A stretch of 64,000 bases of DNA from an uncultured Pseudomonadales bacterium (GCA_964509365.1 CAZDWN010000003.1:134412-198411), one strand, 5' to 3'. Numbered from the stretch's first letter, positions 956 through 43,783 are shown. Notes: a model not told the origin generated them from the letters alone. Translations and numbers: made by a program.

Positions 956-1012
956 CCCTTGGCGGTATCCTATTCCTCAGTACATCAGTATATATTGTCC
1001 AAAGGAGAACCT

Positions 1013-1675: not shown

Positions 1676-1718
1676 ACCTATAGAATACAATTTTTGTAGA
1701 TATATTCTGTGATCTTGA

Positions 1719-7936: not shown

Positions 7937-7948
7937 CAAAAAAATCAC

Positions 7949-10124: not shown

Positions 10125-11230
10125 TTGTCTTCTTAAATTTTGCACCGCTATCTTTTGGTGGAGGAGCCGAGCGCTGGATGGCATCTGTCGCATCAAGCCT
10201 CTCGAATGAAGAAGCAATCGAAGTCTTGCAGGTCGATCACTCCATCTCAAATATTTACTCTCGATTTGTGCTACATCGGAATTTTGATATTCGAGTCGAT
10301 ACATCAAGACTCGCATTCACACAGCGTTTGATCTCACTCTCGAGTTTTATTCCGTTCACCAGTTCTTGGCGACAGCTGCGACGCTCGATACGAGATGCAC
10401 GGACGATCTACACGCGCCTGGAACTCAATGAAATTTTGATCTTGTGCTATTTTGGTGGGTATGAAGTCATACGAAAGACTGTCATCGGACTCCACTCACC
10501 ACTCGAATATAACGCTGATGCGATCTCACTGTTAGGGAAATTTCATAATGCCGTCTACGGCTCGAGATTTATCCGAGCGGTTTTACGGGACGCCAAGCAT
10601 ATCCATGTACTCAATCCGGATCAGGAACGAAAAATGATGGTGACCTATCAGCTTCGCAATGTCGTCAGGATCCCAAACTTTATTGATGATGTGTCTGGAA
10701 AGATGAAAGACTCCGATCCGAGGTATCTCAATGTGTGTTTCCTAGGAGAGTTGGACAAACGCAAAGGAGCAGATGTCTTACTCGAACTCATAGAGAGAAG
10801 CCCAGACTTCATTCGCTATACCATCGCAGGTGACGGATATTTGAAGCAAGAGTATCAAAGACTTCCGAAGCCACAAGTAAAATATCTTGGATACTTGCAG
10901 CATGACAAAATCAGCGAGGTGCTCGAATCTACTGATGTGCTGTTCATGCCATCGCGGGCCGAAAGCTTTTCGCTCGTCTCGCTTGAAGCACTGGCTCATG
11001 GAGTGATCGTCGTATGCTCTTCAAAGATTTCCCCAAATACTTTGGAAGATTACCTCGTCATCAGTAAGAAAAATACCATTGAAGATTATGTAAAGATCCT
11101 CAGTGACTTGCACAAAGAGAAGAAAAAAGGTACGTTGCACTCTCGTCGCGCGAAAATCGCCAAAGAAATCAACAACAAATTTTCAAAAACAGCCACGATA
11201 AATAGACTCAAGAAAGAAATTTTTGATTGA
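10121..11230 (+). CDS. glycosyltransferase family 4 (GT1-like, retaining)
   Basis: C-terminal E..E motif region FMPSRAESFSLVSLEALAHGVIVVCS typical of GT4. 4-nt overlap with the upstream gene. Confidence 0.6.
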   Translation: MIVFLNFAPLSFGGGAERWMASVASSLSNEEAIEVLQVDHSISNIYSRFVLHRNFDIRVDTSRLAFTQRLISLSSFIPFTSSWRQLRRSIRDARTIYTRLELNEILILCYFGGYEVIRKTVIGLHSPLEYNADAISLLGKFHNAVYGSRFIRAVLRDAKHIHVLNPDQERKMMVTYQLRNVVRIPNFIDDVSGKMKDSDPRYLNVCFLGELDKRKGADVLLELIERSPDFIRYTIAGDGYLKQEYQRLPKPQVKYLGYLQHDKISEVLESTDVLFMPSRAESFSLVSLEALAHGVIVVCSSKISPNTLEDYLVISKKNTIEDYVKILSDLHKEKKKGTLHSRRAKIAKEINNKFSKTATINRLKKEIFD

Positions 11231-12044
11231 ACTCATGAAACCAAAATTAAGCATCATCATGTCTACTTACAATGACGAGAAATACATTCGTCAGGCATTA
11301 CAAAGTATTTTGGATCAGACTCTTCAAGAGTGGGAACTCATAATCATAAACGACAAATCTACAGATTCGACTGAATCAATCATTTTTGAAATGTTTAAAA
11401 ATGATAAGCGACTGAAATATCTGAAAAACTCCGAACAAAAGGGAGTTACGATAAATATTATCAAATGCATGGAAATGGCAAAGACTGAGCTAGTCGCTCG
11501 CCTTGATGGTGATGATTATTGGCTCAGTCCGAGGAAATTGGAACGACAATACAAAATAATGGTTGGAGACCCATCAATTGGAATATTAGGTACTTGGGCT
11601 AAAGTGGTAGATCCAGATGGAAAAACTCTGTACAAAATAGAGTATCCCATCGCTGATGAGCGTATGAGACCACGAATCCTTCGTGAAAATCCATTTGTCA
11701 CGAGCAGCATCATGTTTCGAAAGCCCAGTAACTATGAGCTGAGTTTCTTTGACCAAGTGAATAGATATGCCGATGATTTCAATCTAGTACTTCACATAGG
11801 ATTGAAAAAGAAGTTTCAAAATCTAAATCGATATTACTCAGCTTATAGAATGAATCCCGCTGGCATCAGTCAAAGTAAACATAAACTGCAGATTGATGAC
11901 ACCATGAGGACAGCAAAAGCTTTCAAAAAAGATTATGACGGGTACAGGTTTGCGAAGTTACTTTGGACACTCCGTAAACATTACCCCGTTTGGCTTAAAG
12001 GAAAACTGTCCATGCGAATAAAGAAACTCATGAAATTTTATTAA
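11223..12044 (+). CDS. glycosyltransferase family 2
   Basis: LSIIMSTYNDEKYIRQALQSILDQTLQEWELIIINDKSTDST...RLDGDDYW (DxD). Confidence 0.65.
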   Translation: MIELMKPKLSIIMSTYNDEKYIRQALQSILDQTLQEWELIIINDKSTDSTESIIFEMFKNDKRLKYLKNSEQKGVTINIIKCMEMAKTELVARLDGDDYWLSPRKLERQYKIMVGDPSIGILGTWAKVVDPDGKTLYKIEYPIADERMRPRILRENPFVTSSIMFRKPSNYELSFFDQVNRYADDFNLVLHIGLKKKFQNLNRYYSAYRMNPAGISQSKHKLQIDDTMRTAKAFKKDYDGYRFAKLLWTLRKHYPVWLKGKLSMRIKKLMKFY

Positions 12045-12061
12045 TTTGGAGTGGAGATTTT

Positions 12062-12907
12062 ATGAAAATGACTAAAAGAGACAGGATGTTCAGTTTTTTG
12101 GAAAATTTACTACAGTGCGCCAAATTCAACGGTATCTTAATTGCATTTCGAATACATTTCCATTATGTAGTAAGTAGTTTTTCTCTCTCTAAAGATTCCA
12201 AAAAGTACCGTTTTTTGAAGTTCGATGTTGAGTTTATGGATGTTCAGTCTCTTCGAAATATGTTGTTTGAGCTTTTTGGCTTTAACTCTTACTTCTTTAA
12301 GTCGGAACAAATCAATCCAGTAATAATAGATATTGGAGCAAACATTGGGGATTCCATTTTTTACTTCAAATGGCTATATCCCGAAGCTGAAATATTTGCA
12401 TTTGAGCCTCATCCCGAAGCGTTTGCAATGCTAAAAAGAAATATTAAAAAAAATTCCTTCTCCAAAATTCATCCCTACAATGTTGGACTTTCTGATAAGA
12501 AACAGATTGTTGAGTTATTTGTGGGTGAGAGTAGTATTTTAGGTTCCTCAACGATTTTATCCGACGTAAAAAGAATGGATGGAATGAAAGAAGTCAGAAA
12601 GATAAGATTGGAGAAAGTGAGTACTCTAAAAGAGATCACTAAGTTAAAAAGGATAGATTTAATAAAAATTGATATCGAAGGAGCAGAATCTTCACTTTTT
12701 AATGACCTTCAGAAACTTTTCCCAGTTACAAAAAAGGTAATTATAGAATTTCATTTAGTCCCTGAAATCAGAAATAACTCTTTCGATAATATTGTAAATC
12801 TTCTTCGTAAACATGGATTAGAACCGAATATTGCGGGATTTTATCGTAGTGAAAAGAATGAAGCTACTCCTTTTGGCTCGTTATTGATTGCTGATAGAAA
12901 AGTATGA
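12062..12907 (+). CDS. FkbM family methyltransferase
   Basis: [15 protein letters not shown]...[10 protein letters not shown]...[12 protein letters not shown] motif set of FkbM-type SAM methyltransferases. Confidence 0.6.
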
Positions 12908-13425
12908 TGCAAATCCTAAAAAAAATTGAATACATCCCATCATACATTCGAGCGCGCATTCTAAGTGTGAGGTTTGGCACGATTGGAAATACGGTTTTTA
13001 TCAGAGAAAATTTCACCTATAGTTCGCCAAAAAATATTAGATTGGGTCATCATATCTACATAAATCACCATGTTGATTTGGGTGCCGACGCCTCTGGAAT
13101 TGAAATTGGAAATTTTGTCCAAATTGCACCTTACGTGACAATTATGAGCGCTATGCATGAACATGAGAGAACTGATATCCCAATGTACGAGCAGAAAGGT
13201 TATATATCCAAGAAAGTGATAATTGAAGATGATGTCTGGATTGGGTTGCGAGCGATAATTTTACCTGGAGTTAAAATTGGGAAGGGAGCAATAGTGGGAG
13301 CTGGATCAGTCGTCACCAAGAATGTGGAGAGTTACTCCGTTGTGGGAGGAGTTCCTGCAAAATTTATTCGCTCCAGATTGGTATCAAGAAATAATGGAAT
13401 TAAAGTGAGCATGAAGAAAACTTGA
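12904..13425 (+). CDS. sugar O-acetyltransferase, hexapeptide-repeat (left-handed beta-helix) family
   Basis: Repeated hexapeptides: [33 protein letters not shown]. Confidence 0.6.
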
Positions 13426-13548
13426 AGACATTTCAGGCGTGCGCTTGGTTACTTACCAAGCTCTTACAGTCAAAATGCCACAATAGTTCATAATTGATCA
13501 GTTATCTACAAGAGTATTTCATACGAGTAAAGATTGGACAGTGAACCG

Positions 13549-15153
13549 ATGTTTAATAAATTTTTTGCAAAACAACGTGAATCTGAGTACACACTTCCAG
13601 TAATGCTTTTTCTGGTTATCTTAAGTATTGTTGTCTTCCTCGTATATTTTAACCTCGGGAAACATCTGCCATACGCAGACTCGATGTCAAGGTTAGATAT
13701 TGCACGTAAAGTTGTTGATAATCTCAATCCTGGATTAGCGCAACTAGGATCCGTTTGGTTGCCACTACCTCAACTTCTAATGGTTCCTTTTGTCTGGAAT
13801 AATTATTTGTGGCAGAGCGGAATTGCAGGTGCGATAATGTCAATGAGTTCATTTATACTTGGAGGCTTCTTCCTTTATAAGTCTGCATTTCTTATAAGTA
13901 AAAGGTTTATCCCATCTTTTTTCACACTTTGTATTTATGCTTTGAATGTCAATGCTTTATACCTACAGACCACTGCCCTTTCTGAATGCGTTTTTATGTG
14001 TGCGCTATTCGGCGTCATGTATTTTTTCTTGCTATGGATAAATACTTATAAGCGCAGGCATCTACTTTTTGCTGCAATGGCAGTTTCTGCAATCACACTC
14101 ATTCGTTACGAGGGTATCGCTTTACTATTAGCTTCAATCGGCTTTGTTGCTGTCTACAGCTACTATCATGACCGCAGTTACAAGAAACTTGAGGGACAAC
14201 TTATCATGTACTGCTGTGTCGCGTGTCTGGGCTTTGCTCTCTGGACACTCTATTTGACTGCAATTTTCGGCGATCCCTTATTCTGGCTTCGTTATTATGG
14301 ATTCGGTCCAAAAATAATAATTCCTGGTGCAACTGTGTCGGTTCCAACCCAGGCGAAACCATTTATGGCCGCTGTATGGCAGTACTTTACATCGGTGACG
14401 TGGATGTCGGGCATCATACCAATTGTATTTGCCGTCGTAGGAGTTTGGATTGGATTAATACGATCGTACTTTTCCAAGTCATGGAATATTTTAGTGATTC
14501 TCATTCCAATGTCGATCTACTTGCTCATGGTCATGACTCTTCGAAGAAACACTCCTATCGTGCAACCGAATCTCAGTATGGAAAACATCATGTCTACGAA
14601 GACAAGCACAATGACGGGATTCAATATCCGCTACGGGATCATGATGCTGCCTATGGTCGCGTTACTTACTATTTATGTTTTTGATATCAAAAAAACATAT
14701 TACATACCAGCAATAGTCTTGTTCGCGATTTTCACGATTCAAGTGGTAAATACGTACGTCCCTAGATTTTCTCCAATCTACGAGATTCCCTTCGCAATTG
14801 GGAAGAAACCGGACATTAGCATGGTTAAGTGGATGCAAAAAAACTATACGGGGGGATATATCATGATGAGCGCTTCAGGCTTTGAAGATCAAATGTTTTT
14901 AATGGGTTTTCCATACCGTACGTATATCCATGAAGGAGCAGGGAAATACTGGACTGAAGCGCTGGATCGTCCGGCACGATATGCCGACTACATAATAATC
15001 GATTTTAGCCGTGAATCAGACACATTAGCGAAGGAATTTAAGAATAAACAATACTGGAACTGGGACTACAATCTTGTGTGGGAAGAAAAGGGTAGCAATG
15101 CAAAAATCTATAAGATTAAGACTCATCCAGATATAATTATTCAAGCTAACTAG
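13549..15153 (+). CDS. GT-C-fold-like polytopic membrane glycosyltransferase candidate, paralog 1 of 3
   Basis: About 11 TM helices with a first-loop acidic motif YADSMSRLDIARK, then GLAQLGSVWLPLPQ. C-terminal periplasmic-type domain with YIHEGAGKYW. First ATG is at 13549; the track start at 13534 is TTG. Confidence 0.55.
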   Translation: MFNKFFAKQRESEYTLPVMLFLVILSIVVFLVYFNLGKHLPYADSMSRLDIARKVVDNLNPGLAQLGSVWLPLPQLLMVPFVWNNYLWQSGIAGAIMSMSSFILGGFFLYKSAFLISKRFIPSFFTLCIYALNVNALYLQTTALSECVFMCALFGVMYFFLLWINTYKRRHLLFAAMAVSAITLIRYEGIALLLASIGFVAVYSYYHDRSYKKLEGQLIMYCCVACLGFALWTLYLTAIFGDPLFWLRYYGFGPKIIIPGATVSVPTQAKPFMAAVWQYFTSVTWMSGIIPIVFAVVGVWIGLIRSYFSKSWNILVILIPMSIYLLMVMTLRRNTPIVQPNLSMENIMSTKTSTMTGFNIRYGIMMLPMVALLTIYVFDIKKTYYIPAIVLFAIFTIQVVNTYVPRFSPIYEIPFAIGKKPDISMVKWMQKNYTGGYIMMSASGFEDQMFLMGFPYRTYIHEGAGKYWTEALDRPARYADYIIIDFSRESDTLAKEFKNKQYWNWDYNLVWEEKGSNAKIYKIKTHPDIIIQAN

Positions 15154-15259
15154 TTTTTTAACTTATCATAAAATGTAAGGATCTTGTAAGAGAAGCTCAT
15201 GTAAAGTATGCTGAACTCCTAAAGTGTTTGTTCCATTCACTTCCCAGGGTAGCGCACTT

Positions 15260-16876
15260 ATGAGTTCTTTTTTCTCTACCTGTAAGGGTCATTTTAATAA
15301 ATATTTTGATCTTTACGTTGTAAGCTTTCTCCTTCTCATAAGCCTCTTTTGCACCTGGCATTTCTTTCGATCCGAAAAAATACTCCTCTATGGTGATTCA
15401 CTCTCACGGCTGAATATATCAAGAAAGATTTTTGACAATATAACTCCGGGATTAGCTCAAATTGGAAATGTTTGGCTGCCGCTACCTCAGTTGGCAATGA
15501 TGCCTTTCGTAGCTAACAACTTTCTTTGGCACACTGGACTAGCAGGATCGATTGTATCGGCACTCACTTTCGTTTTAGGCGGACTTTACTTATATCGTTC
15601 AATTTTTCTGCTATCTAAATCTAAAATCACAGGAGCTATATCAATATGCATTTATGCTCTTAACATTAATTTAATGTACTTACAGACTACAGCAATGTCA
15701 GAATCATTTTTCTTGTGTGCAGTCAGTGCATCAATTTACTACTTCATTAAATGGCTAAAGACGGGTAATAAGATTCATTTAATCCCAGCTGCGATTGCAG
15801 TAAGCGCTATGACATTGATTCGTTATGAAGCCTTGGGGTTCTTATTTGCCTCAATTCCAATGGTATTTATTTTTACACTTTATGAGAAAAGAAATTACCA
15901 TAAGGCGGAAGGCAATGCCATTGTCTACGCTAGTCTAGCCTGCCTGGGATTTGCTCTTTGGTCTTTATATTTGGCTGCCATTTTTGGTGATCCGCTATTT
16001 TGGAAAAACTACTATATTGGTACTCATGTACTTGGGGACAGTAATACTCAGCTACATATATTTACTCATCATTTAAACTTTATTGAGGCTGTTTGGAAAT
16101 ATTTAACGGCAGTAGTTTGGATGAACGGACTGATTCCAACCGCAATTGCTACTTTAGGAATTCCAATTCTTCTGTGGAAATCATACAAGCAAAAAAACTA
16201 TTACTTTCTCCCCGTATTGCTTTCATTCTCAATGTTCGCATTTATGGTGTTAACATTGCAACGTAACACTCCGATAGATCAACCTCAACTTAGTATTCAG
16301 GCTCTGCGCTCAGACAGTACAAGTAATTTCCCCGAATTCAACATCAGTTATGGCTTGCTCATGCTTCCGGTTATTGTTTTACTATTTTCTTACGCTTTTA
16401 ATACACAATACAAGCTGGTCAAAGTACTGCTTGTTCTGCTATTCTCCGTACAGGTTTACTCATATTTTTATCCGACTTATTCGGTCATTTACCAAATTCC
16501 AATAAGTATTGGTGATAACATCACTCAAGGTACACTTAAGGAAAAGCAGATGGTCGAATGGATGAAAACTAATTATGACAATGGCTACATCATGATAAGT
16601 GCCCTTAAACATGATCCTCAAATGTTACAGTTTGGATTAGATTACAGAAACTATATTCATGAAGGAACTGGAAAATATTGGAAAGAATCAACTAGAGATC
16701 CTCAGCGATATGCAAAATGGATAATATTTGATTCGTATAATAAAGATGATCAAGTTACGAAATATTTGTTTAAATCATTAAATCTGGACTTTTTTTACAT
16801 CAAAGTATATGACAATGATGGAATGTTCGTTTATAAGATTAAGACTCATCCTGACATCATAATTCCACAGAATTGA
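15260..16876 (+). CDS. GT-C-fold-like polytopic membrane glycosyltransferase candidate, paralog 2 of 3
   Basis: Colinear with paralog 1: YGDSLSRLNISRK, GLAQIGNVWLPLPQ, YIHEGTGKYW, and C-terminus KIKTHPDIII shared with paralog 1. First ATG is at 15260. Confidence 0.55.
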   Translation: MSSFFSTCKGHFNKYFDLYVVSFLLLISLFCTWHFFRSEKILLYGDSLSRLNISRKIFDNITPGLAQIGNVWLPLPQLAMMPFVANNFLWHTGLAGSIVSALTFVLGGLYLYRSIFLLSKSKITGAISICIYALNINLMYLQTTAMSESFFLCAVSASIYYFIKWLKTGNKIHLIPAAIAVSAMTLIRYEALGFLFASIPMVFIFTLYEKRNYHKAEGNAIVYASLACLGFALWSLYLAAIFGDPLFWKNYYIGTHVLGDSNTQLHIFTHHLNFIEAVWKYLTAVVWMNGLIPTAIATLGIPILLWKSYKQKNYYFLPVLLSFSMFAFMVLTLQRNTPIDQPQLSIQALRSDSTSNFPEFNISYGLLMLPVIVLLFSYAFNTQYKLVKVLLVLLFSVQVYSYFYPTYSVIYQIPISIGDNITQGTLKEKQMVEWMKTNYDNGYIMISALKHDPQMLQFGLDYRNYIHEGTGKYWKESTRDPQRYAKWIIFDSYNKDDQVTKYLFKSLNLDFFYIKVYDNDGMFVYKIKTHPDIIIPQN

Positions 16877-16880
16877 CGAT

Positions 16881-18407
16881 ATGAATATCGGGGAGAAAGT
16901 ATCGGAAGCTTTTAACGCAAAAATCATCTTCATCATTGCTTTCATTCTCTCCGTCTCCGCGTGGTGGATATCGTATTCTCACAACCTCGTCCTCGTGTAT
17001 AACGACGGTGCTTCGCATCTCAATATCGCTCGACGGATCCTCGATAACTACACTCCAGGTGTCGCTCAAATCGGTACCGTGTGGCTACCATTTCCTCACG
17101 TCATGATGTTTTTCCTGGCATGGAATGATTATCTGTGGCATACGGCACTCGCAGGCAGTCTCGTCTCAATGTCGGCATATATTCTCTGTGTTGTCTTCAC
17201 CTACAAGATGATCGTCGAGATCACCAATAAAAAAATTGCGGGTCTAGTCGGCTCGCTAGTGATCGCTCTCAACCCCAATTTGCTCTATTTGCAAACGACT
17301 CCGATGACGGAGACGCTGCTCCTCGCGACATTTGTCATGACTGGATATTATCTGTCTCGGTATATGAATACGAAGAAAGTGTCGTATTTGATCGCGACGG
17401 GGATCGCGGTGATGTTTTCGACACTCATCCGCTATGACGGATGGTTTTTATTTGCGTCATTACTCCTGCTCATCCCGATTTGGGAAGTGATCGGTCCGGG
17501 GAAAAAGAAAGCGGAAGGCAGTTTCTTTTTGTTCGCCTCTGTGGGAGGACTCGGTATCCTCCTATGGATCGTATGGAATTGGGCGATCTTTGGTCAGCCA
17601 TTGTATTTCCTTTTTGGAGAGTACTCAGCGTATGCACAACAGCGAGTCCTCAGTGGTGTCGGCCAGCTCCCGACGGAAAAAAATATCGTCAATGCATTCA
17701 CCTATTTCATGTGGGCAGTGGTCGATAACAATGGGATCGTCCTCGTCATCTCGTCACTCATCTCACTGGTGCTGATCCCATTTTTCATGGCAAATAAAAA
17801 ATACTTGCATGTGATCTTGGCTGTCCTCTCTCCGTTTGTCTTTAATATCATCGCCCTCTACGCGGGCCAGTCAGCCATGAACGTCCCACAAGCCGCAGTC
17901 AATCCTGGACTTTTTAATATCCGCTACGGTCTCGTCATGATCCCTGGGATAGCGGTGATCTTGGGAGTATTGGCAGGGAAGCTCAAATATTCTTGGATAC
18001 TCGTCGTGTTGGTATTGGTCGCGCAATCGTATCTGTTTGTGCAAGCAGGCAAGCCAATCACGCTCGTCGACGGACAGAACGGCCTCATCAACACCTACTA
18101 TACGGTGGAGGCAAGTAAGTGGCTCGCAGTAAATTATCAGGGAGGATTAATTCTCACGAGTCTCGCGAGTCATGATGCATTCGTCGCACGCGCTGGCATC
18201 CCCATGCGAAACTATATCCATGAAGGGAATGCTGGGTATTGGGAAAAGGCACTGGTAAGACCATCAGACACCATAGAATATATTACGGTCCTCACATTTC
18301 CTCCGGATAGTGTCTACAAAAAACTTGCTGACAATCTCGACTTTCAGACCAATTATGTGAAGATACACAATTATGAAAAATTTGAAATTTATAAGCGTCG
18401 TTGGTAG
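16881..18407 (+). CDS. GT-C-fold-like polytopic membrane glycosyltransferase candidate, paralog 3 of 3
   Basis: YNDGASHLNIARR, GVAQIGTVWLPFPH, YIHEGNAGYW; more diverged than paralogs 1 and 2. Confidence 0.55.
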   Translation: MNIGEKVSEAFNAKIIFIIAFILSVSAWWISYSHNLVLVYNDGASHLNIARRILDNYTPGVAQIGTVWLPFPHVMMFFLAWNDYLWHTALAGSLVSMSAYILCVVFTYKMIVEITNKKIAGLVGSLVIALNPNLLYLQTTPMTETLLLATFVMTGYYLSRYMNTKKVSYLIATGIAVMFSTLIRYDGWFLFASLLLLIPIWEVIGPGKKKAEGSFFLFASVGGLGILLWIVWNWAIFGQPLYFLFGEYSAYAQQRVLSGVGQLPTEKNIVNAFTYFMWAVVDNNGIVLVISSLISLVLIPFFMANKKYLHVILAVLSPFVFNIIALYAGQSAMNVPQAAVNPGLFNIRYGLVMIPGIAVILGVLAGKLKYSWILVVLVLVAQSYLFVQAGKPITLVDGQNGLINTYYTVEASKWLAVNYQGGLILTSLASHDAFVARAGIPMRNYIHEGNAGYWEKALVRPSDTIEYITVLTFPPDSVYKKLADNLDFQTNYVKIHNYEKFEIYKRRW

Positions 18408-19626
18408 CATTTTCATCTGCTTGTTTGTCTTTACGCTGCGACCGGCATACGCCGATGAGTCGCCGGCAATTTGGAGCGTCCGCTCGGTAGATACGATGAA
18501 GCTCTCGCGCGATAAGGCTCGCGCCAAGAAAGATGACAAATCTTTCGATGATGTGATACGCCGTGAGGTCAGTGAGATCAAAGATCTGGGGGCAAATTAT
18601 GTCGCCCTCGGAACTCCCTATGATGATGAGTTCTTGCCGTATCTACGTCGATGGGTGGCTATCGCACGTGAGAATGGACTCCACGTATGGTATCGAGGAA
18701 CGTTTTCATCCTACGAAGGTTGGTTTGATCATAGTAAAAGCCTTTCACCAAACAATCTCCTAGAAGCAGGCAAGAAATTTATCGCAAAGAATCAAGACTT
18801 ATTTGAAGATGGAGATATCTTTGACCTGTGTCCGGAATGTGAAAATGGCGGGTATTGGCCGCAGCCAAGAAAAGATGGAGACTTCAATCAGTTTATACAG
18901 GAAAAAAACAAAGTCCTCACCGAAGCTTTTGCCAGCATCAACAAAAAAGTAATCGTCAATTATCCTTCTATCATTGGAGGACGATCAAAAGATGTGCTTA
19001 CACAAGACACGTTTGACGCACTTGGAAATGTCACTGCGATTGATCATTATGCCAACGATGCCAAAAGCTATGATGAGTACATGCACTATTTTATGGATGA
19101 GCATCGCACAAAAGTGTTGTTTAGTGAGTTTGGCGCACCGATCCCGGATTTGCATGGAAAGATGACACAAGCATCACAAGCAGCCTTTGTCCGGAGCGTA
19201 TTTGAGACACTGTATGCACATGGAAAGGATGTCATAGGAGTAAATTATTGGGTACTCTCTGGTGGTACCACATCTCTGTATGACGAGACGGCTCCCAGAG
19301 AAGTCGTGGAAGTAATAAAAGATTACTATCAACCTGGAGTACTGAGTGGAACAGTCAAAAATAGCCTGCGACAACCGCTCGCCCACATCGCCATACAGAT
19401 TGACGATCATGAGCAAGGTGAAACTGATGCTACAGGAAGTTTTGCGGTCGCAGTGCCCGCTGGCGAGCATACATTCTCGACTGACTCGGTTTCGTATCGA
19501 CCATATAGTCTGCACGTATCTTCAAAAAGGAATGAGAAGCAGAGCCAGGATATTATTTTGTATCCGACAGCGAAGTCTCTGTGGTACTCTATTCGAGAGC
19601 GATTTTTACTTTTTACAAACCTATGA
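18373..19626 (+). CDS. secreted TIM-barrel glycoside hydrolase candidate (clan GH-A-like) with C-terminal carboxypeptidase-regulatory-like beta-sandwich
   Basis: Signal peptide MKNLKFISVVGSIFICLFVFTLRPAYA. CPECENGG (acid/base-like) and FSEFGAP (nucleophile-like TEFG motif). C-terminal GTVKN...DATGSFAVAVPAGEHTF domain. Confidence 0.4.
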   Translation: MKNLKFISVVGSIFICLFVFTLRPAYADESPAIWSVRSVDTMKLSRDKARAKKDDKSFDDVIRREVSEIKDLGANYVALGTPYDDEFLPYLRRWVAIARENGLHVWYRGTFSSYEGWFDHSKSLSPNNLLEAGKKFIAKNQDLFEDGDIFDLCPECENGGYWPQPRKDGDFNQFIQEKNKVLTEAFASINKKVIVNYPSIIGGRSKDVLTQDTFDALGNVTAIDHYANDAKSYDEYMHYFMDEHRTKVLFSEFGAPIPDLHGKMTQASQAAFVRSVFETLYAHGKDVIGVNYWVLSGGTTSLYDETAPREVVEVIKDYYQPGVLSGTVKNSLRQPLAHIAIQIDDHEQGETDATGSFAVAVPAGEHTFSTDSVSYRPYSLHVSSKRNEKQSQDIILYPTAKSLWYSIRERFLLFTNL

Positions 19627-36742: not shown

Positions 36743-37459
36743 ATGAAAGGTATTATTCTCGCTGGCGGAGCTGGCACTCGATTGGCTCCTCTCACCAAAG
36801 TGACGAGCAAACAATTGCTTCCGATCTACAACAAGCCAATGATCTATTATCCATTGGAGACACTTCGCAGCGCCGGGATCACTGATATTTTGATCATCAT
36901 CGCTCCAGATCACGCTGGAGACTTTTTGAAGCTATTAGGCTCTGGTCGCGAATTTGGATGCCGCTTTTCATATGAAGTGCAGGAAAAACCGGATGGTCTT
37001 GCGCAAGCATTTATCATCGGTGAAAAATTCATTGCGGGAGACGACGTCACCCTCATTCTTGGTGACAATTTGTTCCAGGACGACTTCTCCGAATCGATCA
37101 AATCATTTCAATCTGGCGCTCGCGTGTTTGCGAAGCAAGTCCCGGATCCAAAACGATTTGGTGTCGTCGCATTTGATGAGAATCGAAAAGCGACGTCAAT
37201 CGTCGAAAAGCCAACAGAGCCAGCCTCTGATTATGCGGTGACCGGACTCTATATCTATGATAAGACCGTCGTGGAAAAAGCCAAAGCGTTGAAGCCATCG
37301 GCTCGCGGTGAGCTTGAGATCACTGATCTCAATAACGTTTACTTGCAGGAAGGCTCGCTCGATGTCGCCTTTGTCGAAGGCAAGTGGCTCGACACCGGGA
37401 CTTTCGAAAGTCTCTTTGAAGCAATCACCTTGGCAAGAGAAAAAGAACTAGGCAAGTAA
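36743..37459 (+). CDS. sugar-1-phosphate nucleotidyltransferase (short RmlA/glucose-1-phosphate thymidylyltransferase-like)
   Basis: [41 protein letters not shown] nucleotidyltransferase N-terminus; 238 aa. Confidence 0.65.
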
Positions 37460-37461
37460 TA

Positions 37462-37480
37462 ATTTGTCATTGGTCATTTG
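37462..37480 (+). repeat. 19-nt exact repeat copy A (ATTTGTCATTGGTCATTTG) within a TTGNCAT heptad array
   Basis: Intergenic AATTTGTCAT TGGTCAT TTGAACAT TTGTCAT GTTTTCAT immediately upstream of the four-helix-bundle gene. Identical 19-mer at 41246-41264. Confidence 0.5.
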
Positions 37481-37498
37481 AACATTTGTCATGTTTTC

Positions 37499-37894
37499 AT
37501 GAGTAATGAACTCAAATCAGTTTCGAGACAAAAAACAGAGCAACTCCTCGATCGCTGCACCACCTTCGCTGAGAGCGTTGTCTCAGTTCTTCGAAGTATA
37601 AAAGTTAACCCAGTTAACAGAAGGATAATTGAGCAATGCGCTGCGTCAGCTGGCTCAATAGGGGCAAATTATTGTGAAGCAACTGAAGCTGAAAGCAAAC
37701 GTGACTTCGTCCATAAGATTGGCATCGCCAGTAAAGAAATAAAGGAAACTCGTCATTGGCTTCGAATTTTAGCTACGACAAATCCTGAGGAGCTTGCCAA
37801 TTGGAGAAGACTCTGGAAAGAGGCGACAGAATTACTTCTTATATTTTCCTCAATTCTTTGGACATCGAAGAAAAAAATGGCAAATGAAAAGTGA
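37499..37894 (+). CDS. four-helix-bundle protein (TIGR02436 / 23S rRNA intervening-sequence protein family)
   Basis: IGANYCEATEAESKRDFVHKIGIASKEIKETRHWLRIL matches the family motif GxAxNIxEG...KEarET.yWL. Confidence 0.6.
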   Translation: MSNELKSVSRQKTEQLLDRCTTFAESVVSVLRSIKVNPVNRRIIEQCAASAGSIGANYCEATEAESKRDFVHKIGIASKEIKETRHWLRILATTNPEELANWRRLWKEATELLLIFSSILWTSKKKMANEK

Positions 37895-37913: not shown

Positions 37914-38855
37914 CTATCCAATTCCGTAGATTAAGAGCATGGTTGCGGCGCCCCAGAGGCCTGCAGTGATGAGAAGTGGGCGATCGCGAAGAAGTACACG
38001 CTCTGGACTCTCACCTTCATTACTTTCGTACACGAGTTGCAGGTAACGCATCACTCCAAAAATCACGAGTGGGACAGTGATCATCAGCCATTTCTCCGAG
38101 ACAAAAGTCCGTGGCAGTCGAGCGAATAAGCTCACAAACAGCACACCTTGCGGCTTAAACTCATTGCGCTGAAATGTATACAGCGCGTACGTAAGCCAAG
38201 TCGTATTAGCAAACATACCCACATAGACATCAAGTAGTCGCTGCGTGTAGTGAGACAGCGTCTCGCGATGTTTTGAGAGATCTTCGCCATATCCGCGAAG
38301 GAGCGTTCGTTCGCTTTGGCGTTTGCCGACGGCAAGAAAGAGTGACGCTGAGATGACCGTGAGCAGGAACCACACACTCATATGCAAGTTCACGACGACA
38401 GCTCCAGCATAGACTCTGATCAAGAAACCAGCGGCGATGATCATCACATCAATAATAGGGACGTGCTTGAGTTTGTAGGTGTATGCCAGATGCAACAAGA
38501 TGTACGCAATTCCGAGGAAAAAGAAAAACGTCGAGATCATAAACGCCCAGATCATAGCGACGGTGATGAGCGCGATGGCCAATCCCCATGCGACTTTCGC
38601 TGAGAGCTGTCCCGATGCAATCGGACGCTTTTTCTTAAACGGATGGAGGCGATCTTGCGGTGCATCGATAATGTCGTTGATCAAATACACGCTCGACGAG
38701 AGCATACAAAAGATCACGACGCCAATCGACACAAATTGGAAATATCCGGGTTCAAAGAAAAAGCCAGAAAACACGAGTGCCGCGTAGAGGGAGAAGTTCT
38801 TTATCCACTGTCGCGGTCTGATCTCACGAAGAATGATAACCCCAAGCGAAGCCAT
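37914..38855 (-). CDS. UbiA-family prenyl-phosphate phosphoribosyltransferase (decaprenyl-phosphate phosphoribosyltransferase / DPPR-synthase-like)
   Basis: YLINDIIDAPQDRLHPFKKKRPIASGQLS matches the DPPR-synthase motif NDxxDxxxDRxHPxKxxRPIAxG; about 8 TM helices. Start at the internal MASLGVII (38855) overlaps the upstream gene by 55 nt. Confidence 0.55.
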   Translation of the reverse strand: MASLGVIILREIRPRQWIKNFSLYAALVFSGFFFEPGYFQFVSIGVVIFCMLSSSVYLINDIIDAPQDRLHPFKKKRPIASGQLSAKVAWGLAIALITVAMIWAFMISTFFFFLGIAYILLHLAYTYKLKHVPIIDVMIIAAGFLIRVYAGAVVVNLHMSVWFLLTVISASLFLAVGKRQSERTLLRGYGEDLSKHRETLSHYTQRLLDVYVGMFANTTWLTYALYTFQRNEFKPQGVLFVSLFARLPRTFVSEKWLMITVPLVIFGVMRYLQLVYESNEGESPERVLLRDRPLLITAGLWGAATMLLIYGIG

Positions 38856-39841
38856 GTGCCAATCATACACACGATCGCTAGAATTAGCAAAATAGTGAAT
38901 ATTTTTTGCCCGCTCGTCAGCTGCAATGAGATCAAACCGAGTATAAAAGCACTCAACCAATACAACATGGCTACTTGGTTTTTGCTGTAGCCGCGATCCA
39001 GCAGCGCGTGATGCAGATGAGAACGATCTCCCCAAAACGGTGATTTTTTGTGAGCTATACGCCTAGCTATCACATAGACAGCGTCAGCCATTGGGACGGC
39101 GAGGACGAGCATCGCGGTCGCAAGCTTAGCTCCCGAGAGAATAGAAAGGACAGCGAGTAAGAAACCTGCCAATGTGCTGGCTCCAAATCCTGCCATCATT
39201 TTTTGAGGGAATTTATTCCAGTATAAAAATCCAAGGTATGCTCCGGCTGTCAGAATCGAAAACGTGAAAACGACATGCTGCTTTGGATCCGGGAAAAAAC
39301 GAGTGGAGAGTGCTGCGATCGTCAACGCAGCGATGGCGACGTAGCCTGGCATCTGTCCATCGAGCCCAGTCGAAAAATTCACTATGTTCATGCACCACAC
39401 AATCCAGACGACCGCGAGTACTGATGAGATGAGTGCTACTTGCGAGAAGACGATGACTCCTCCAAATGGGTTGGTAATGTATGGGATCGTCAGCCCAAAT
39501 AAAATGGGGATGACTGCAGCGACAATTTGAAAGCCAAGGCGAAGGATCGGATGCGGATCGGCAATATCATCCCAAGTACCGATGAGAATAAGTAGCAGAA
39601 TTGAGAGACAAATGCCGATGATGAGTGGAGAGATTGGTATGAAGAACGGAATGCTTGCAAGGATAGCGATGCCAGCGACGAGACCGCCACCACGCGCCAA
39701 CGGTCGCGTGTGAATCACTTTTGGATGATTCGTCTTTGTTGGATCATCGAGCCAGTGATGTTTGGTGTAGATGCGAATGACGAGAGGACCGAGGAGGAGG
39801 GCAAAAATCAGTGGGACTAGAAAAGAGAGAACAAGTATCAT
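38801..39841 (-). CDS. MraY/WecA-family polyprenyl-phosphate N-acetylhexosamine-1-phosphate transferase (glycosyltransferase family 4, initiating enzyme)
   Basis: HPKVIHTRPLARGGGLVAGI, IGTWDDIADP and NIVNFSTGLDG motifs; about 10 TM helices. Start at MILVLSF with an ATGA start/stop overlap to the upstream gene. Confidence 0.65.
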   Translation of the reverse strand: MILVLSFLVPLIFALLLGPLVIRIYTKHHWLDDPTKTNHPKVIHTRPLARGGGLVAGIAILASIPFFIPISPLIIGICLSILLLILIGTWDDIADPHPILRLGFQIVAAVIPILFGLTIPYITNPFGGVIVFSQVALISSVLAVVWIVWCMNIVNFSTGLDGQMPGYVAIAALTIAALSTRFFPDPKQHVVFTFSILTAGAYLGFLYWNKFPQKMMAGFGASTLAGFLLAVLSILSGAKLATAMLVLAVPMADAVYVIARRIAHKKSPFWGDRSHLHHALLDRGYSKNQVAMLYWLSAFILGLISLQLTSGQKIFTILLILAIVCMIGTWLRLGLSFFVRSDRDSG

Positions 39842-40158
39842 ATGGTGATCACCACAATATGGATGAGTGCAACGACTAAAATTGCGAGGGGTACCAGTGA
39901 TGACCACAAAATAATTCGACCAAATGTCGCATCCATTTTTTTTGTTAGTCGGATAAAAAAGACGTGAAGCAGTGCAATGAAGATCACCGCAACTGGAAAT
40001 ACAAACAAAAATGCTTTTTGATCAAGCTGTTGTTCCGAGACTGGGAGTGAGTACCACAAAGGGATTTGATTTGGTCCAAAGAAGAAACCAACGGCGCTGA
40101 CCGCGAGCGTGAGCACTGAGACGAAAATGAACACTACCTCTTTTGAGTTCCATTTCAT
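39838..40158 (-). CDS. small membrane protein
   Basis: 106 aa with 3 TM helices; translationally coupled (ATGA) to the MraY-like gene. Confidence 0.35.
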   Translation of the reverse strand: MKWNSKEVVFIFVSVLTLAVSAVGFFFGPNQIPLWYSLPVSEQQLDQKAFLFVFPVAVIFIALLHVFFIRLTKKMDATFGRIILWSSLVPLAILVVALIHIVVITI

Positions 40159-40178
40159 AGTGAATCTCTAGAGTATAC

Positions 40179-41753
40179 CTAGTGGAGGTCTATTTTGCGA
40201 TAGGTCACGAATGGGGCGATCGAAGCGACTTGCACGTATTGACCGGTCATGTACGCAGCCAATCCCGGATAGGGAGTCTTGTAGTTTGTATCGATGACAA
40301 TATATTTTGGCTTCATTTTTTCAAGGGCTTCGGTCGTCACATCAAATCCATTGAAATCTTGGATGTGGTAACTACTCGTATATTTCCCCGGTGGCAATCT
40401 TCTCGAGAGTGCATAGATCATCGGATAATCTCCCCACACAAAAATCCGATCGTCGGGAGTCGTCTGCGCTGCAATTCGCTCTGACGTCGCATACATCGCT
40501 GGAAGATTTGGATCAAAATGCGCATAGTATCGGTCTTTTGTCTGCCTGCGCGTGACAAACGAAATGTAGTTTTGATAGTACGGCATCAATGGATAGTACC
40601 AGAATTTGATCGCCCAAATCCCATAGATCCCGATGACCAGCGCGGTCACTGCAGTAAGGATTGGAAGGAGTCGTACTCCTTTGGAGTGCTGCAAGAGAGA
40701 TTGTCCAAGAAAGACGACGAGCAACGAAGCTGGAGGGATCACTTGGATCAAGTAGTGAGGATAGGGCCGCTCAGCTAAGAAAGCTCCAAAAAGAGTCGCC
40801 GCAAACCACATTGCTAAAAATGTGAGTTTGTTTCCGTTCTTTTTTGAGAGAAGTAGCAATGCAATCATCGCGATCCCAAATCCCACCGCTCGATTTTTCA
40901 GTCCTGATGATCCGACATTGCTTGCGGCATGCGTGCCAGTCGCCCAAGATGATAAGTATCCGATGTTTTGAGCAAATGCAGCACTCACATATTCTTTGCC
41001 GACACCCTTGGCACTGTAATACGCAAAGGAGAGGAGAATAGGAAGGAGGAAGGCCATCGAAAAAGAGATAAGTGGCAAGAGATAAGAGCCAAGATGAAAA
41101 TCTCTTTTTTGTACACGCCAAACAGTGAATGGCACAACGATCAAAAAGAAAAAGCCGGCGGCAAACGCATCAAAGAGCGATGGAACTTTGATCAAAAATG
41201 CAAGCGAAAAAAAGAAACCGGAGAGCACAATATTTTTCATTTGCCATTTGTCATTGGTCATTTGTCTCCATAGGAGGTACATCCCGACTATGGCAGGCAT
41301 CACCATGAAGATCTCCCCATTGGCGATTGCGCCTTCCGCGAAAAACGGGATGATCGCAAAAAGCACAGTTGCGATCGTAGAGTAAGTCACTCTTGGAAAT
41401 TGGATTCCCCCGATACTCGTAAACCCAGGGTGATCTGCGTCATCCAATAGCAGATGTGCCAGTCGTTCAAATGCGACGATCGCGACGCTATTCCATGCGA
41501 GTAAAAAAAATCGAAACCAGAAGACGGAACCAGTGAGCGCCGCCATGAAGTAGATCACCGGTGGCTTGTTGTCATGAATATCTTTGTACAGTGTCAGCCC
41601 ATGTCGGATCGCATTGCCGAGCGTGAGATAGATCCCTTCGTCACCGTACCAATAGGGTTCGAGGAGGCTCGGGAGCCTCAGGATCGCACACGCACACAGT
41701 ATCCAAATCAAATATTCATGTCGAAGTAAGAAAGCTTTTATTTTTAGAGGCAT
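40179..41753 (-). CDS. GT-C family membrane glycosyltransferase (ArnT/PMT-like, GT39/GT83-type)
   Basis: First-loop motif WYGDEGIYLTLGNAI (the DE motif of ArnT/PMT enzymes) and 11-13 TM helices. Confidence 0.6.
   Translation of the reverse strand: MPLKIKAFLLRHEYLIWILCACAILRLPSLLEPYWYGDEGIYLTLGNAIRHGLTLYKDIHDNKPPVIYFMAALTGSVFWFRFFLLAWNSVAIVAFERLAHLLLDDADHPGFTSIGGIQFPRVTYSTIATVLFAIIPFFAEGAIANGEIFMVMPAIVGMYLLWRQMTNDKWQMKNIVLSGFFFSLAFLIKVPSLFDAFAAGFFFLIVVPFTVWRVQKRDFHLGSYLLPLISFSMAFLLPILLSFAYYSAKGVGKEYVSAAFAQNIGYLSSWATGTHAASNVGSSGLKNRAVGFGIAMIALLLLSKKNGNKLTFLAMWFAATLFGAFLAERPYPHYLIQVIPPASLLVVFLGQSLLQHSKGVRLLPILTAVTALVIGIYGIWAIKFWYYPLMPYYQNYISFVTRRQTKDRYYAHFDPNLPAMYATSERIAAQTTPDDRIFVWGDYPMIYALSRRLPPGKYTSSYHIQDFNGFDVTTEALEKMKPKYIVIDTNYKTPYPGLAAYMTGQYVQVASIAPFVTYRKIDLH
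41246..41264 (+). repeat. 19-nt exact repeat copy B (ATTTGTCATTGGTCATTTG) within a TTGNCAT heptad array, inside coding sequence
   Basis: TTTTTCAT TTGCCAT TTGTCAT TGGTCAT TTGTCTCCAT. The reverse complement encodes QMTNDKWQM of the GT-C protein. Confidence 0.5.
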
Positions 41754-41768
41754 AGTGAACAGTTGTGA

Positions 41769-42290
41769 CTACGATTCTTCAATAATTTGCACTATTTCAA
41801 CTTTAGTTGAAAGTCTTGTGTTAGGCAAATAGAAAACGATCACTCTCACTGGTAGAGGAGAGGGTAGAGTTGCGAAGCTCATTAGTCTATCGTACTGGAA
41901 CTTTGAAATATGAACGCGAATGGGTTTAGACAAGTCTTGGAGCTTGATAAAATATTGCTGAAAAGTTCTTCCACCTCCTCCATGTATGACTTCCACAACA
42001 CCTTCATATCGTTGTTCAGAAGAAAATAGGTCTGCGAAGCCATTCTTTACTTGATTGGCTAGCAAGATAATAAACGTCAGAAGTACCGCAAAACCTAGGA
42101 GCGGACCTTGTGCATTCAGAAGTACAACAAAGAGTGATATGGCAGTAATAGAAGTTGCAAATGCTTCGATCCCTACGAGTGTTTTTAGACTGTCTGTAGA
42201 TATTTTCCCCAATATAAATGCAAAAACTATATCAAATATAAAATTTGTGAAAAAACCGAGTATGAAAAGTAAGTAAAACAGCTCGGTCAT
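41769..42290 (-). CDS. membrane-anchored hypothetical protein
   Basis: N-terminal hydrophobic region plus a soluble domain; 4-nt overlap with the upstream GT2. Confidence 0.35.
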   Translation of the reverse strand: MTELFYLLFILGFFTNFIFDIVFAFILGKISTDSLKTLVGIEAFATSITAISLFVVLLNAQGPLLGFAVLLTFIILLANQVKNGFADLFSSEQRYEGVVEVIHGGGGRTFQQYFIKLQDLSKPIRVHISKFQYDRLMSFATLPSPLPVRVIVFYLPNTRLSTKVEIVQIIEES

Positions 42291-43783
42291 ATCTTTTCAG
42301 TGACACGATATTCGAGGTACTTCCCGAGCATGAGTCGCGTGTGAGCGTCCAATCCAGGAAGGGCGGAGAAGAAGAACCCAAGGACAGGCAGCAGTAAAAA
42401 CTCAAACGGCTGCAAAATGCGATGGATGATTGATACTTCTTTTGGACGAGCGGGTCGGGAAAGCGCATCAATGATAAAGATGACGACAAGTGAGATCAAA
42501 GAGATTGTCATCAACGCACTACTGACTTGTGGGAGACGTTTGCCGATCGTAAAGCGATTGAACTCCTGGTTGAGAAGTGGCGGCAGAAGCGCTCCGATCG
42601 TGATCGCGAACCAGTTCACTGGCCAGAGGAAATGATCTTCGATCGTCTTAAACACCCGGATGGTCTTATCCCAAAATGGGACTCCTTCTGCTGTCGCCCA
42701 CATCTTGATGATGTATGCGTCATCACTCACCCCCCAAGCCCAACGTTTGATTTGTTCGTATTGATTGACCATGGTCGCCCAAAATCCGTGACTTTCGGCC
42801 GCATCAGCCATGATCGGTAAAAAGATCGGTTCGACTTCCAGGTCTCCTTTTTTCGCAAAATAGGCTTTGAAGAAAAATCGGTAATCCTCAGGGACCACAT
42901 CGACGTCCCAGTAGCCGATCTCGTCGACGAGCTTGAGTGACGTCGAGTAGGTCGAGAAATTGACCAAGCGATCTTGTCTCATCAAAATAAACATTTGAGT
43001 GACTGAGAACACAGAAGACATGACTCGGACGGGCGCGGGGACTACCCAAATATTGTTATAAAATCTGATACTTCCTTGCCAGATGCGATTGAATCGTTTT
43101 GGATTGCTGATGAAGTCGTATGTCAGACAGGCAAAGTATGAAGGGTGAAATAGCGCGTCTGCGTCTTCACTGGTGATCGTGATACTCTCGATCGGAAAGT
43201 GACGTTCATCGACGAGAATTTTCTTTGCGTGCCGTGCACCCCAGGCTGTATTTGAAGACTTTCCTTTCACTTCGCCATAGATATCAGGATGATAGGTCAT
43301 CCACAAATCACCAAAATATTTTCCAAATTTATCATTGAGTGCGTTGGCTTTTTCACGAGCTGGATCGCCTTCGCGATCTTCAAACGAGAGCATGACATGG
43401 ATGTTTTTGAGTGGATACGTTTGTTTGGTGAGCTCGGTAAGCGTGCGATCCAAAGTGTGCAAAGGTTCTTTGTACGTCGGGATGACAATAATGTGATGGA
43501 AATCCTTCCAATTGGAATATTTCTTCAGATCTGCTATCCAGTCAAATCTCGAGGCTGCGCGGATCTTGTAATATGCGATCGCTGCCAAAAAAGCGACGGA
43601 GAGCGAGCGAAACAGCCAATACACCGAGAACGCAATAATATAGTAGGCGACGATCTCAGGGACGAGGAACGAGCCCCAGACGGGAAAGAGGATTAATGAC
43701 CATGAGACAAACCCTGGAAGGATCTCCAGAAACCTTTGGCTTTTGACTGGATGACGATGAATGTACTGCTTTAGAGGCCACAT
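42287..43783 (-). CDS. membrane family-2 glycosyltransferase, processive synthase-like (QxxRW)
   Basis: IVIPTYKEPLHTLDRTL...SFEDREGD...QYEQIKRWAWG with flanking TM helices. Paralogous to the C-terminal domain of the 5723-7936 fusion protein. Confidence 0.6.
   Translation of the reverse strand: MWPLKQYIHRHPVKSQRFLEILPGFVSWSLILFPVWGSFLVPEIVAYYIIAFSVYWLFRSLSVAFLAAIAYYKIRAASRFDWIADLKKYSNWKDFHHIIVIPTYKEPLHTLDRTLTELTKQTYPLKNIHVMLSFEDREGDPAREKANALNDKFGKYFGDLWMTYHPDIYGEVKGKSSNTAWGARHAKKILVDERHFPIESITITSEDADALFHPSYFACLTYDFISNPKRFNRIWQGSIRFYNNIWVVPAPVRVMSSVFSVTQMFILMRQDRLVNFSTYSTSLKLVDEIGYWDVDVVPEDYRFFFKAYFAKKGDLEVEPIFLPIMADAAESHGFWATMVNQYEQIKRWAWGVSDDAYIIKMWATAEGVPFWDKTIRVFKTIEDHFLWPVNWFAITIGALLPPLLNQEFNRFTIGKRLPQVSSALMTISLISLVVIFIIDALSRPARPKEVSIIHRILQPFEFLLLPVLGFFFSALPGLDAHTRLMLGKYLEYRVTEKI

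Follow-up and report, generated by a model that had tools for sequence, protein, structure and literature searches.

A window of 64,000 nucleotides, deposited as DNA of an uncultured Pseudomonadales bacterium (GCA_964509365.1, CAZDWN010000003.1:134412-198411), carries on its minus strand, at 37914-43783, a compact cluster of genes for a UbiA-superfamily protein, a MraY/WecA-family transferase of glycosyltransferase family 4 (GT4), a 106-aa membrane protein, a glycosyltransferase of the GT-C fold class and a synthase-type glycosyltransferase of family 2 (GT2). On the balance of the evidence, the cluster is likely to be a housekeeping cell-envelope glycan cassette of the Microgenomates that provides a lipid-linked ribose donor for use outside the cell. 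The UbiA step of this pathway is predicted from family membership and active-site conservation, and the steps after it are proposed from fold, gene linkage and analogy.

The predicted phosphoribosyltransferase

The UbiA-superfamily protein (313 aa; 37914-38855, minus strand) is assigned by its sequence to the clade of decaprenylphosphoryl-5-phosphoribose (DPPR) synthases, the polyprenyl-phosphate 5-phosphoribosyltransferases that are also called polyprenylphosphoryl-5-phosphoribose (PPPR) synthases. An earlier interpretation of the window, made without database searches (the sequence-only reading), had quoted a signature of this clade, and the motif is present in the protein letter for letter: NDIIDAPQDRLHPFKKKRPIASG. 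The protein scores 230.1 bits against the NCBIfam model of decaprenyl-phosphate phosphoribosyltransferase (NF008978, cutoff 207), 219.7 bits against a second model (NF008977) whose cutoff of 234 it does not reach, and at most 58 bits against all UbiA models for quinone, heme O, chlorophyll and geranylgeranylglyceryl phosphate (GGGP) synthesis. Among sequences of the Protein Data Bank (PDB), the best match is Rv3806c of Mycobacterium tuberculosis (structure 8j8j; E = 9.7e-38, 133 bits), and the next UbiA-family structure follows at E = 8e-8 and 35 bits. The protein is approximately 35% identical to its Rhodococcus orthologue, and NCBI and JGI name its homologues in the Candidate Phyla Radiation (CPR) decaprenyl-phosphate phosphoribosyltransferase. 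The assignment made in the sequence-only reading is thereby upheld: the protein falls with the DPPR synthases and outside the quinone and heme O clades.

The active site supports the same prediction. The substrate contacts of Rv3806c are R22, K28, Y70, N73, D77, K87, R90, Q135, Y138, K143 and Y157, of which N73, D77, R22, K87, R90, K143 and Y138 are ligands of Mg2+ and pyrophosphate, while K28, Y70, Q135 and Y157 make contacts with the ribose and the 5-phosphate that are specific to phosphoribosyltransferases; neither the cluster of lysines and arginines that binds phosphoribosyl pyrophosphate (PRPP) nor the ribose and 5-phosphate contacts are conserved in prenyltransferases (PMC10994848). When 163 CPR homologues were aligned with a fragment of Rv3806c, the equivalents of R22, K28, Y70, N73, D77, K87, R90 and Y138 were invariant, and that of K143 was lysine in 153 homologues and arginine in ten. 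The ligands of Mg2+ and pyrophosphate correspond to N60, D64, R13, K74, R77, K130 and Y125 of the window protein, and the invariant K19 and Y57 correspond to K28 and Y70. The equivalent of Q135 is histidine in the window protein and glutamine, histidine or asparagine across the family; that of Y157 is phenylalanine, a change that also occurs in some mycobacteria (PMC10994848).

If the protein were instead an ordinary prenyltransferase of quinone, heme O or ether lipid synthesis, its match to the general Pfam family PF01040 would be equally expected, and JGI does label some of the homologues 4-hydroxybenzoate polyprenyltransferase. The difference between 58 bits at most for the other models and 230 bits for DPPR synthase, together with the invariance here of the PRPP-binding cluster and of the contacts with ribose and 5-phosphate, makes this reading very improbable; on sequence grounds it is effectively refuted.

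Gene order and its conservation

All six minus-strand open reading frames (orfs) that the sequence-only reading had delimited at 37914-43783 are present, and their abutting or overlapping junctions can be read directly. The stop codon of the GT2 gene (42287-43783) shares an ATGA with the start codon of a 173-aa orf (41769-42290), which is followed after 15 nt by the GT-C gene (40179-41753) and, after a further gap of 20 nt, by the 106-aa gene (39838-40158); the stop codon of the latter shares another ATGA with the start of the GT4 gene (38801-39841), and the GT4 gene runs 55 nt into the UbiA gene, the same overlap that gene callers gave in two relatives. The two ATGA overlaps and the 55-nt overlap indicate translational coupling. 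Because of the overlap with the 106-aa gene, 39841 is taken as the true start of the GT4 gene rather than a GTG upstream. A 373-aa version of the UbiA gene was rejected; the 313-aa product, beginning with MASLGV, agrees with the 313-aa products called in relatives. The GC content of the cassette (0.46-0.48) equals that of its flanks, its neighbours are housekeeping genes, and a scan for promoters and terminators gave only chance-level results.

As a six-gene operon, the description in the sequence-only reading stands for five genes, the order of which is conserved in relatives; the 173-aa orf is a lineage-specific insert. This orf has no match in Pfam or NCBIfam, nor did tblastn find one across 2.3 Mb of related loci; in relatives whose GT2 proteins are 94-96% identical, the GT-C gene directly follows the GT2 gene with no such orf between them. 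Absent from every relative examined, it was rejected as a component of the cassette; it is an orphan insertion or else a gene of very recent origin in this genome. Its product has hydrophobic N-terminal segments.

The closest proteins belong to metagenome-assembled genomes named Candidatus Woesebacteria, Pacebacteria, Curtissbacteria, Shapirobacteria, Cerribacteria and 'Patescibacteria group', and the neighbouring genes in the window (encoding an RRM protein, HU, a PEGA-SH3 protein, GAPDH, PGK, TatD, RF and FtsEX) are typical for such genomes; therefore, the window derives from a Microgenomates-type member of the CPR (Patescibacteria). Other contigs with Microgenomates gene content in public Third Party Annotation (TPA) assemblies (loci L005, L007-L009, L042, L068, L076 and others) are titled 'uncultured Pseudomonadales', 'uncultured Gammaproteobacteria' or 'Candidatus Bathyarchaeia archaeon', and such labels look wrong.

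Conservation of the cassette was surveyed from both ends. A GT2-centred scan of one genome per species gave 80 loci, of which 58 extend at least 7 kb beyond GT2 on its downstream side and were counted: GT-C, GT4 and UbiA genes lie downstream on the same strand in 43, a subset of them in five, and none in the remaining ten. A UbiA-centred scan of metagenome contigs gave 80 further loci; GT2, GT-C and GT4 genes occur in order in 31 of the 35 that have at least 7 kb upstream, and in each of the 48 loci that extend at least 3 kb upstream, GT4 immediately precedes UbiA. The conserved order is GT2, GT-C, 106-aa membrane protein, GT4, UbiA, and since the same order and strand are kept in dozens of divergent genomes, the arrangement is beyond chance. 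In full cassettes the median identity to the window proteins is 57% for GT2, 52% for UbiA, 44% for GT4 and 32% for GT-C. The invariant core is the GT4-UbiA pair, which is nearly always joined by GT-C and the small protein and usually by GT2.

Variant cassettes carry extra PMT_2 GT-C genes (20 loci), a PMT-family gene after UbiA (ten loci) or a DUF2079 gene. Four UbiA-centred loci (L091, L092, L096 and L102, three of them within the 35) contain GT4-UbiA without this GT-C or GT2. In L096 (9947-11569, plus strand), UbiA is followed by a different 540-aa protein with multiple transmembrane (TM) segments, an HDGENH motif after the first of them and a soluble C-terminal part; next comes a 400-aa protein that matches nothing in Pfam. 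Profile comparison of the 540-aa protein with the GT-C family of the window found nothing. If the 540-aa protein is another GT-C-type enzyme, the donor synthase would have been kept and the transferase swapped.

The glycosyltransferases and the small membrane protein

The 524-aa protein (40179-41753, minus strand) has no match in Pfam or NCBIfam, and its family profile found nothing by sequence in the PDB; some of its homologues match PF13231 (PMT_2). An AlphaFold model computed with 37 homologues (pLDDT 91.8, pTM 0.91) consists of an ArnT/PMT_2-like membrane domain and a C-terminal soluble alpha/beta domain, and its comparison with known folds gave scores of 21.9 for ALG3, 21.8 for GPI mannosyltransferase I, 19.4 for Pmt4, 18.3 for ArnT (381 residues aligned), 14.2 for AftA, 12.3 for AftB and 12.1 for AftD. 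The predicted structure thus identifies the protein as a GT-C enzyme, as the sequence-only reading had proposed in calling it ArnT/PMT-like; in the model, the arabinofuranosyltransferases are no closer at the fold level than other GT-C families. In GT-C enzymes the catalytic acidic residues are located after the first TM helix, in the first extracytoplasmic loop, and an invariant motif, E32-P-x-x-Y-x-D38-E39, follows the first TM helix of this family.

The resemblance to PMT_2 raises the question of whether the acceptor is a protein, such as a type IV pilin or an S-layer protein, with the GT-C enzyme acting like TfpW of Pseudomonas or like a PMT and with the WecA-like enzyme and GT2 serving another glycan. 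Besides the PF13231 matches of the homologues, the true PMT-family gene that follows UbiA in some variant cassettes favours such an arrangement, and pilin arabinosylation by a GT-C enzyme that depends on a DPPR synthase is a known precedent. The cassette has no linked gene for a pilin or an S-layer protein, however, and a glycan acceptor is suggested by the invariant presence of a polyprenyl-phosphate sugar-phosphate transferase and by the frequent presence of a synthase, so that a protein acceptor is considered quite improbable.

The 498-aa GT2 (42287-43783, minus strand) has only a weak, sub-threshold match to PF00535 in Pfam, and a sequence search of the PDB matched it to no solved synthase. 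Its predicted model (pLDDT 83) is structurally closest to Chlorella virus hyaluronan synthase (HAS; TM-score 0.58-0.60), followed by BcsA, Xenopus HAS1 (XlHAS1) and yeast Chs1. D207xD209, E299-D300 and Q344xxR347W348 are invariant in the family alignment; DxD, ED and QxxRW are signatures of membrane-integrated processive synthases. The predicted fold and these motifs bear out the synthase type named in the sequence-only reading and identify GT2 as a hyaluronan/cellulose-synthase-like enzyme of putative processivity. GT2 proteins are 68-96% identical across more than 120 clusters (defined at 90% identity), which is unusually high conservation for a CPR membrane protein; the neighbouring GT-C proteins are 38-70% identical. 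In four loci (L046, L047, L051 and L063), a GH18 (chitinase-like) gene lies between the GT2 and GT-C genes. Synthase operons often include a hydrolase for their own polymer, and GH18 beside a synthase-type GT2 is therefore a hint that the product contains N-acetylglucosamine.

The GT4 protein (346 aa; 38801-39841, minus strand) matches PF00953 with E = 3.5e-23, so the membership in this family that was implied by calling it a MraY/WecA-like initiator holds. Its best NCBIfam match, TIGR02380 (wecA), scores 69 bits against a cutoff of 326, and TIGR00445 (mraY) scores 47.7 bits against a cutoff of 192. Judged by these matches, GT4 is a polyprenyl-phosphate sugar-1-phosphate transferase of the PNPT family that is equivalent to neither MraY nor WecA and is not the MraY of the cell.

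The 106-aa protein (39838-40158, minus strand) is encoded between GT-C and GT4 in 54 loci. Its hydropathy and conservation reveal three hydrophobic segments, predicted to be TM helices, and one conserved loop motif, LPPQxPLFYSxP. With relaxed thresholds, Pfam returned only a weak match to RDD (E = 0.022) and none to SMR, GtrA or MATE, and BLASTP found no similarity to GtrA. The protein is possibly an accessory of the GT-C enzyme or part of a system for translocation of the donor.

Missing partners and the identity of the pentose

Partners known from other pentofuranose pathways were sought by tblastn with Rhodococcus DprE1, DprE2, Rv3789-like GtrA, PAP2 and AftB and with the HAD-IB phosphatase, GtrA and LCP proteins of Lactococcus, in the 64-kb window, 1.39 Mb of genome loci and 0.90 Mb of metagenome loci (about 2.3 Mb and more than 100 cassettes, with approximately 10 kb on each side of each). 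The sequence-only reading had seen no DprE1/DprE2 pair in the window; tblastn confirms this absence and extends it to the 2.3 Mb of related loci, where the sole match is a weak one to an FAD domain (22% identity). Homologues of PAP2, HAD-IB, AftB, GtrA and LCP were likewise found neither in the window nor in the related loci, and Pfam scans of 68 orfs of the window revealed none of these partners. The 313-aa UbiA protein contains no extra domain and thus no fused HAD phosphatase.

The lack of a linked epimerase makes ribofuranose, rather than arabinofuranose, the most likely sugar. Direct precedent for the ribofuranose donor suggested in the sequence-only reading is now available: a GT-C enzyme directly uses the undecaprenyl-phospho-ribofuranose that a UbiA-family synthase makes, with no epimerase, and epimerase genes are reported within candidate systems for glycans that contain arabinofuranose or xylofuranose (Kelly et al., PNAS 2024; PMC11127046).

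The same pathway could still use polyprenyl-phospho-arabinofuranose (or -xylofuranose) if DprE1/DprE2- or ORF13-type enzymes were encoded in other parts of the genome. All known pentofuranose donors have the UbiA step in common, the Rhodococcus DprE1/DprE2 genes are approximately 33 kb from ubiA, so that linkage is not obligatory, and the search for epimerases covered approximately 10 kb on each side of the cassettes. The distribution of epimerases tells against this alternative, as they are reported to lie inside the candidate arabinofuranose and xylofuranose modification systems of Kelly et al. (PMC11127046) and are lacking in the window and around more than 100 cassettes except for the 22% match; so does the streamlining of CPR genomes, which are approximately 1 Mb in size. 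An arabinofuranose or xylofuranose donor is accordingly thought improbable.

A polyprenyl diphosphate synthase at 33416-34483 had also been drawn into the sequence-only reading. An enzyme of that family is indeed encoded there, but it is of the trans type (PF00348), reaches no equivalog cutoff and keeps its synteny in close relatives only; it adds little and was rejected as support for the pathway.

Comparison with known systems

The list of known occurrences in the sequence-only reading (Corynebacterineae, Pseudomonas pilin arabinosylation and rhizobial Nod factors) is outdated, since systems of this kind have proved to be widespread. The candidate systems of Kelly et al. (PMC11127046) include none from Patescibacteria, and a literature search found no paper linking Patescibacteria or the CPR with DPPR synthase, pentofuranoses or this cassette; a 'hyaluronan synthase' mentioned in a Microgenomates paper was set aside as unrelated, since it concerned Parcubacteria.

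The closest comparison is with the three-component system of Citrobacter youngae O1/O2 (ORF15, ORF14 and ORF12; PMC11127046). Both link a PPPR synthase to a GT-C enzyme (here in 43 of 58 and 31 of 35 loci) and lack a DprE-type epimerase, which in Citrobacter-type systems signifies a ribofuranose donor (PMC11127046), and the logic that they would share is conversion of PRPP to a lipid-phospho-ribofuranose followed by transfer outside the membrane. In contrast to the Citrobacter-type systems, the cassette has no fused HAD phosphatase domain or separate phosphatase; it has the conserved 106-aa protein with three predicted TM helices in place of a MATE, SMR or GtrA flippase; it always includes a WecA-like transferase and usually a HAS-like synthase; and it occupies a conserved housekeeping position rather than a variable O-antigen locus.

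With the decaprenylphosphoryl-arabinose (DPA) and arabinogalactan pathway of Mycobacteriales (Rv3806c, Rv3807c, DprE1/DprE2, AftA/B/D, Emb, WecA and GlfT2), the cassette shares the active-site residues of UbiA and the logic of a WecA-type primer, a GT2 polymerase, a lipid-phospho-pentose donor and a GT-C enzyme. The Rhodococcus ubiA gene adjoins genes for a GT-C enzyme (AftB, a solved GT-C structure) and a GT2 (GlfT2). The difference is that tblastn found the pair of DprE1 (an FAD oxidase) and DprE2 (an SDR protein) neither in the window nor in the related loci. The Rhodococcus sequence NZ_CP145323.1 (L086/L087) is a 74-kb 'plasmid pmega_4' of Rhodococcus ruber that holds the core arabinogalactan and mycolate region of the chromosome, with glf, glfT2, PAP2, ubiA, aftB, fadD32, pks13, emb, aftA, dprE2 and dprE1, and in which AftB bears the annotation 'flagellar motor control protein ZomB'; probably the replicon has been assigned wrongly and the AftB gene misnamed.

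The polysaccharide cluster of Lactococcus plasmid pLLF27D offers a comparison from a Gram-positive-type cell: its DPPR synthase is approximately 36% identical and is encoded beside a large unclassified membrane protein of 533 aa, with no epimerase. The large membrane proteins of the two systems are unrelated by sequence, and pLLF27D encodes a HAD-IB phosphatase, a GtrA flippase and an LCP ligase, of which no homologue was found near the CPR cassettes.

The pairing of GT4 with GT2 recalls a fourth system, the WecA-primed, synthase-dependent O-antigen synthesis of Salmonella O:54 (WbbF), which pairs an initiating polyprenyl-phosphate N-acetylhexosamine-1-phosphate transferase with a membrane-embedded processive GT2 bearing QxxRW. 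The cassette likewise combines a putative initiating transferase with a QxxRW GT2 of the HAS/BcsA type, known here from sequence and predicted fold.

The proposed pathway

At the cytoplasmic face of the membrane, the UbiA enzyme is predicted from its family and conserved contact residues to move 5-phosphoribose from PRPP to polyprenyl phosphate. An enzyme not encoded in the cassette probably dephosphorylates the product to polyprenyl-phospho-ribofuranose. The donor would then reach the outer face, where, as the fold and linkage of the GT-C enzyme suggest, this enzyme would pass the pentofuranose to an extracytoplasmic acceptor. The WecA-like enzyme, which is co-translated, would supply a polyprenyl-diphospho-sugar primer for the acceptor, and the HAS/cellulose-synthase-like GT2 would polymerize and export a backbone by analogy with WecA-primed, synthase-dependent O-antigen synthesis. 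The 106-aa membrane protein would be an accessory.

Several observations weigh against this scheme. Neither a PAP2 nor a HAD-IB phosphoribose phosphatase was found in or near the cassette, although one could be encoded elsewhere in the genome, and no flippase of a known type was found near it (for GtrA with both tblastn and Pfam, for SMR and MATE with Pfam alone in a subset of orfs). The profile of the GT-C family shows no detectable sequence relation to Rhodococcus AftB, to the 533-aa neighbour in Lactococcus or to a GT-C-like neighbour in Rhizobium sp. CCGE531 (a GT136-type candidate from the systems listed by Kelly et al., and not the founding ORF12), with the consequence that the assignment of its donor rests on gene linkage. 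Synthase-type GT2 enzymes often need no lipid primer. In ten of the 58 GT2-centred loci, no other cassette gene lies within 7-10 kb downstream of GT2, and GT2, being far more conserved than GT-C, may serve a separate function.

An alternative is that the genes are neighbours in separate pathways, GT2 making an exopolysaccharide of its own, the GT-C enzyme using some other polyprenyl-phospho-sugar, and the UbiA product feeding another acceptor or enzyme. The loci in which GT2 stands alone, the disparity in median identity between GT2 and GT-C, the lack of a sequence tie between the GT-C family and known pentofuranosyltransferases and the four loci with GT4-UbiA but without this GT-C or GT2 are all in its favour. 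The full order is nevertheless kept in most loci from both scan directions, with overlapping reading frames; in L096, the one examined of those four loci, a different multi-TM protein follows UbiA; and the cassette encodes no polyprenyl-phospho-hexose synthase (GtrB/DPM1-like). Separate pathways are credible but unlikely, and the single pathway with an extracytoplasmic ribose transfer is preferred.

A more ambitious version of the single pathway may be put forward as a speculation that is itself unlikely to be correct in full. The product could be a conserved, probably essential wall glycopolymer, assembled by a hitherto undescribed route, with a backbone made by the HAS-like synthase on a polyprenyl-diphospho-sugar and extended or decorated by the GT-C enzyme from polyprenyl-phospho-ribose. 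Since none of more than 100 cassettes has a linked phosphatase, the donor might keep its 5-phosphate and the GT-C enzyme might install ribose-5-phosphate, and the 106-aa protein might be a subunit of a new kind, for donor translocation or as an accessory of the GT-C enzyme. If ribose-5-phosphate is installed, the result would be an anionic, teichoic-acid-like polymer made by an arabinogalactan-like route.

Other features of the window

A second glycan locus occupies 5723-19626 on the plus strand and is partly of low GC content (0.35-0.42 at 12-18 kb). It encodes a GT2-GT2 fusion, a Wzx-like flippase, a further GT2, a GT1-fold enzyme, another GT2, an FkbM methyltransferase, a hexapeptide acyltransferase, a 539-aa protein with no Pfam match, two PMT_2-type GT-C proteins and a CarboxypepD_reg protein, and it looks like a variable surface-polysaccharide island. 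Convergent on the UbiA end of the cassette are an RmlA-like nucleotidyltransferase gene (36743-37459, plus strand) and then a gene for a 23S rRNA intervening-sequence protein (37478-37894, plus strand); genes for UDP-glucose 6-dehydrogenase (60222-61586) and an enzyme of the 4,6-dehydratase/epimerase family (62565-63539) are also on the plus strand. The nearby nucleotide-sugar genes may supply substrates to one of the two glycan loci.

At 22488-25778 on the minus strand is a 1096-aa orf with no Pfam match at E ≤ 0.001, and the same is true of several adjacent orfs. A relative with a 96% identical GT2 (L169) has a DarT-Macro (DarTG-like) pair at 136-1815, minus strand, beside a Mur-ligase gene; there is none at the matching place in the window.

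Significance

The CPR constitutes a large share of bacterial diversity, and we know of no experimental work on the secondary cell-wall polymers of its members. The advance made here is incremental, in that the genes are already correctly named by public pipelines and the logic of the pathway is known, and no unexpected mechanism is implied unless the ribose-5-phosphate or new-accessory readings hold. Because its order and frame coupling are conserved across many Microgenomates lineages and its setting is that of housekeeping genes, the cassette is a strong candidate for a core envelope glycan pathway. It would extend the lipid-phospho-pentofuranose systems to a new phylum, and the combination of a new GT-C family with the lack of the usual phosphatase and flippase points to missing or novel parts. 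The prediction that ribofuranose is placed on polyprenyl phosphate and transferred outside the membrane can be checked by heterologous expression without cultivation, and the cassette would provide a first handle on the envelope glycans of the ultra-small Patescibacteria.

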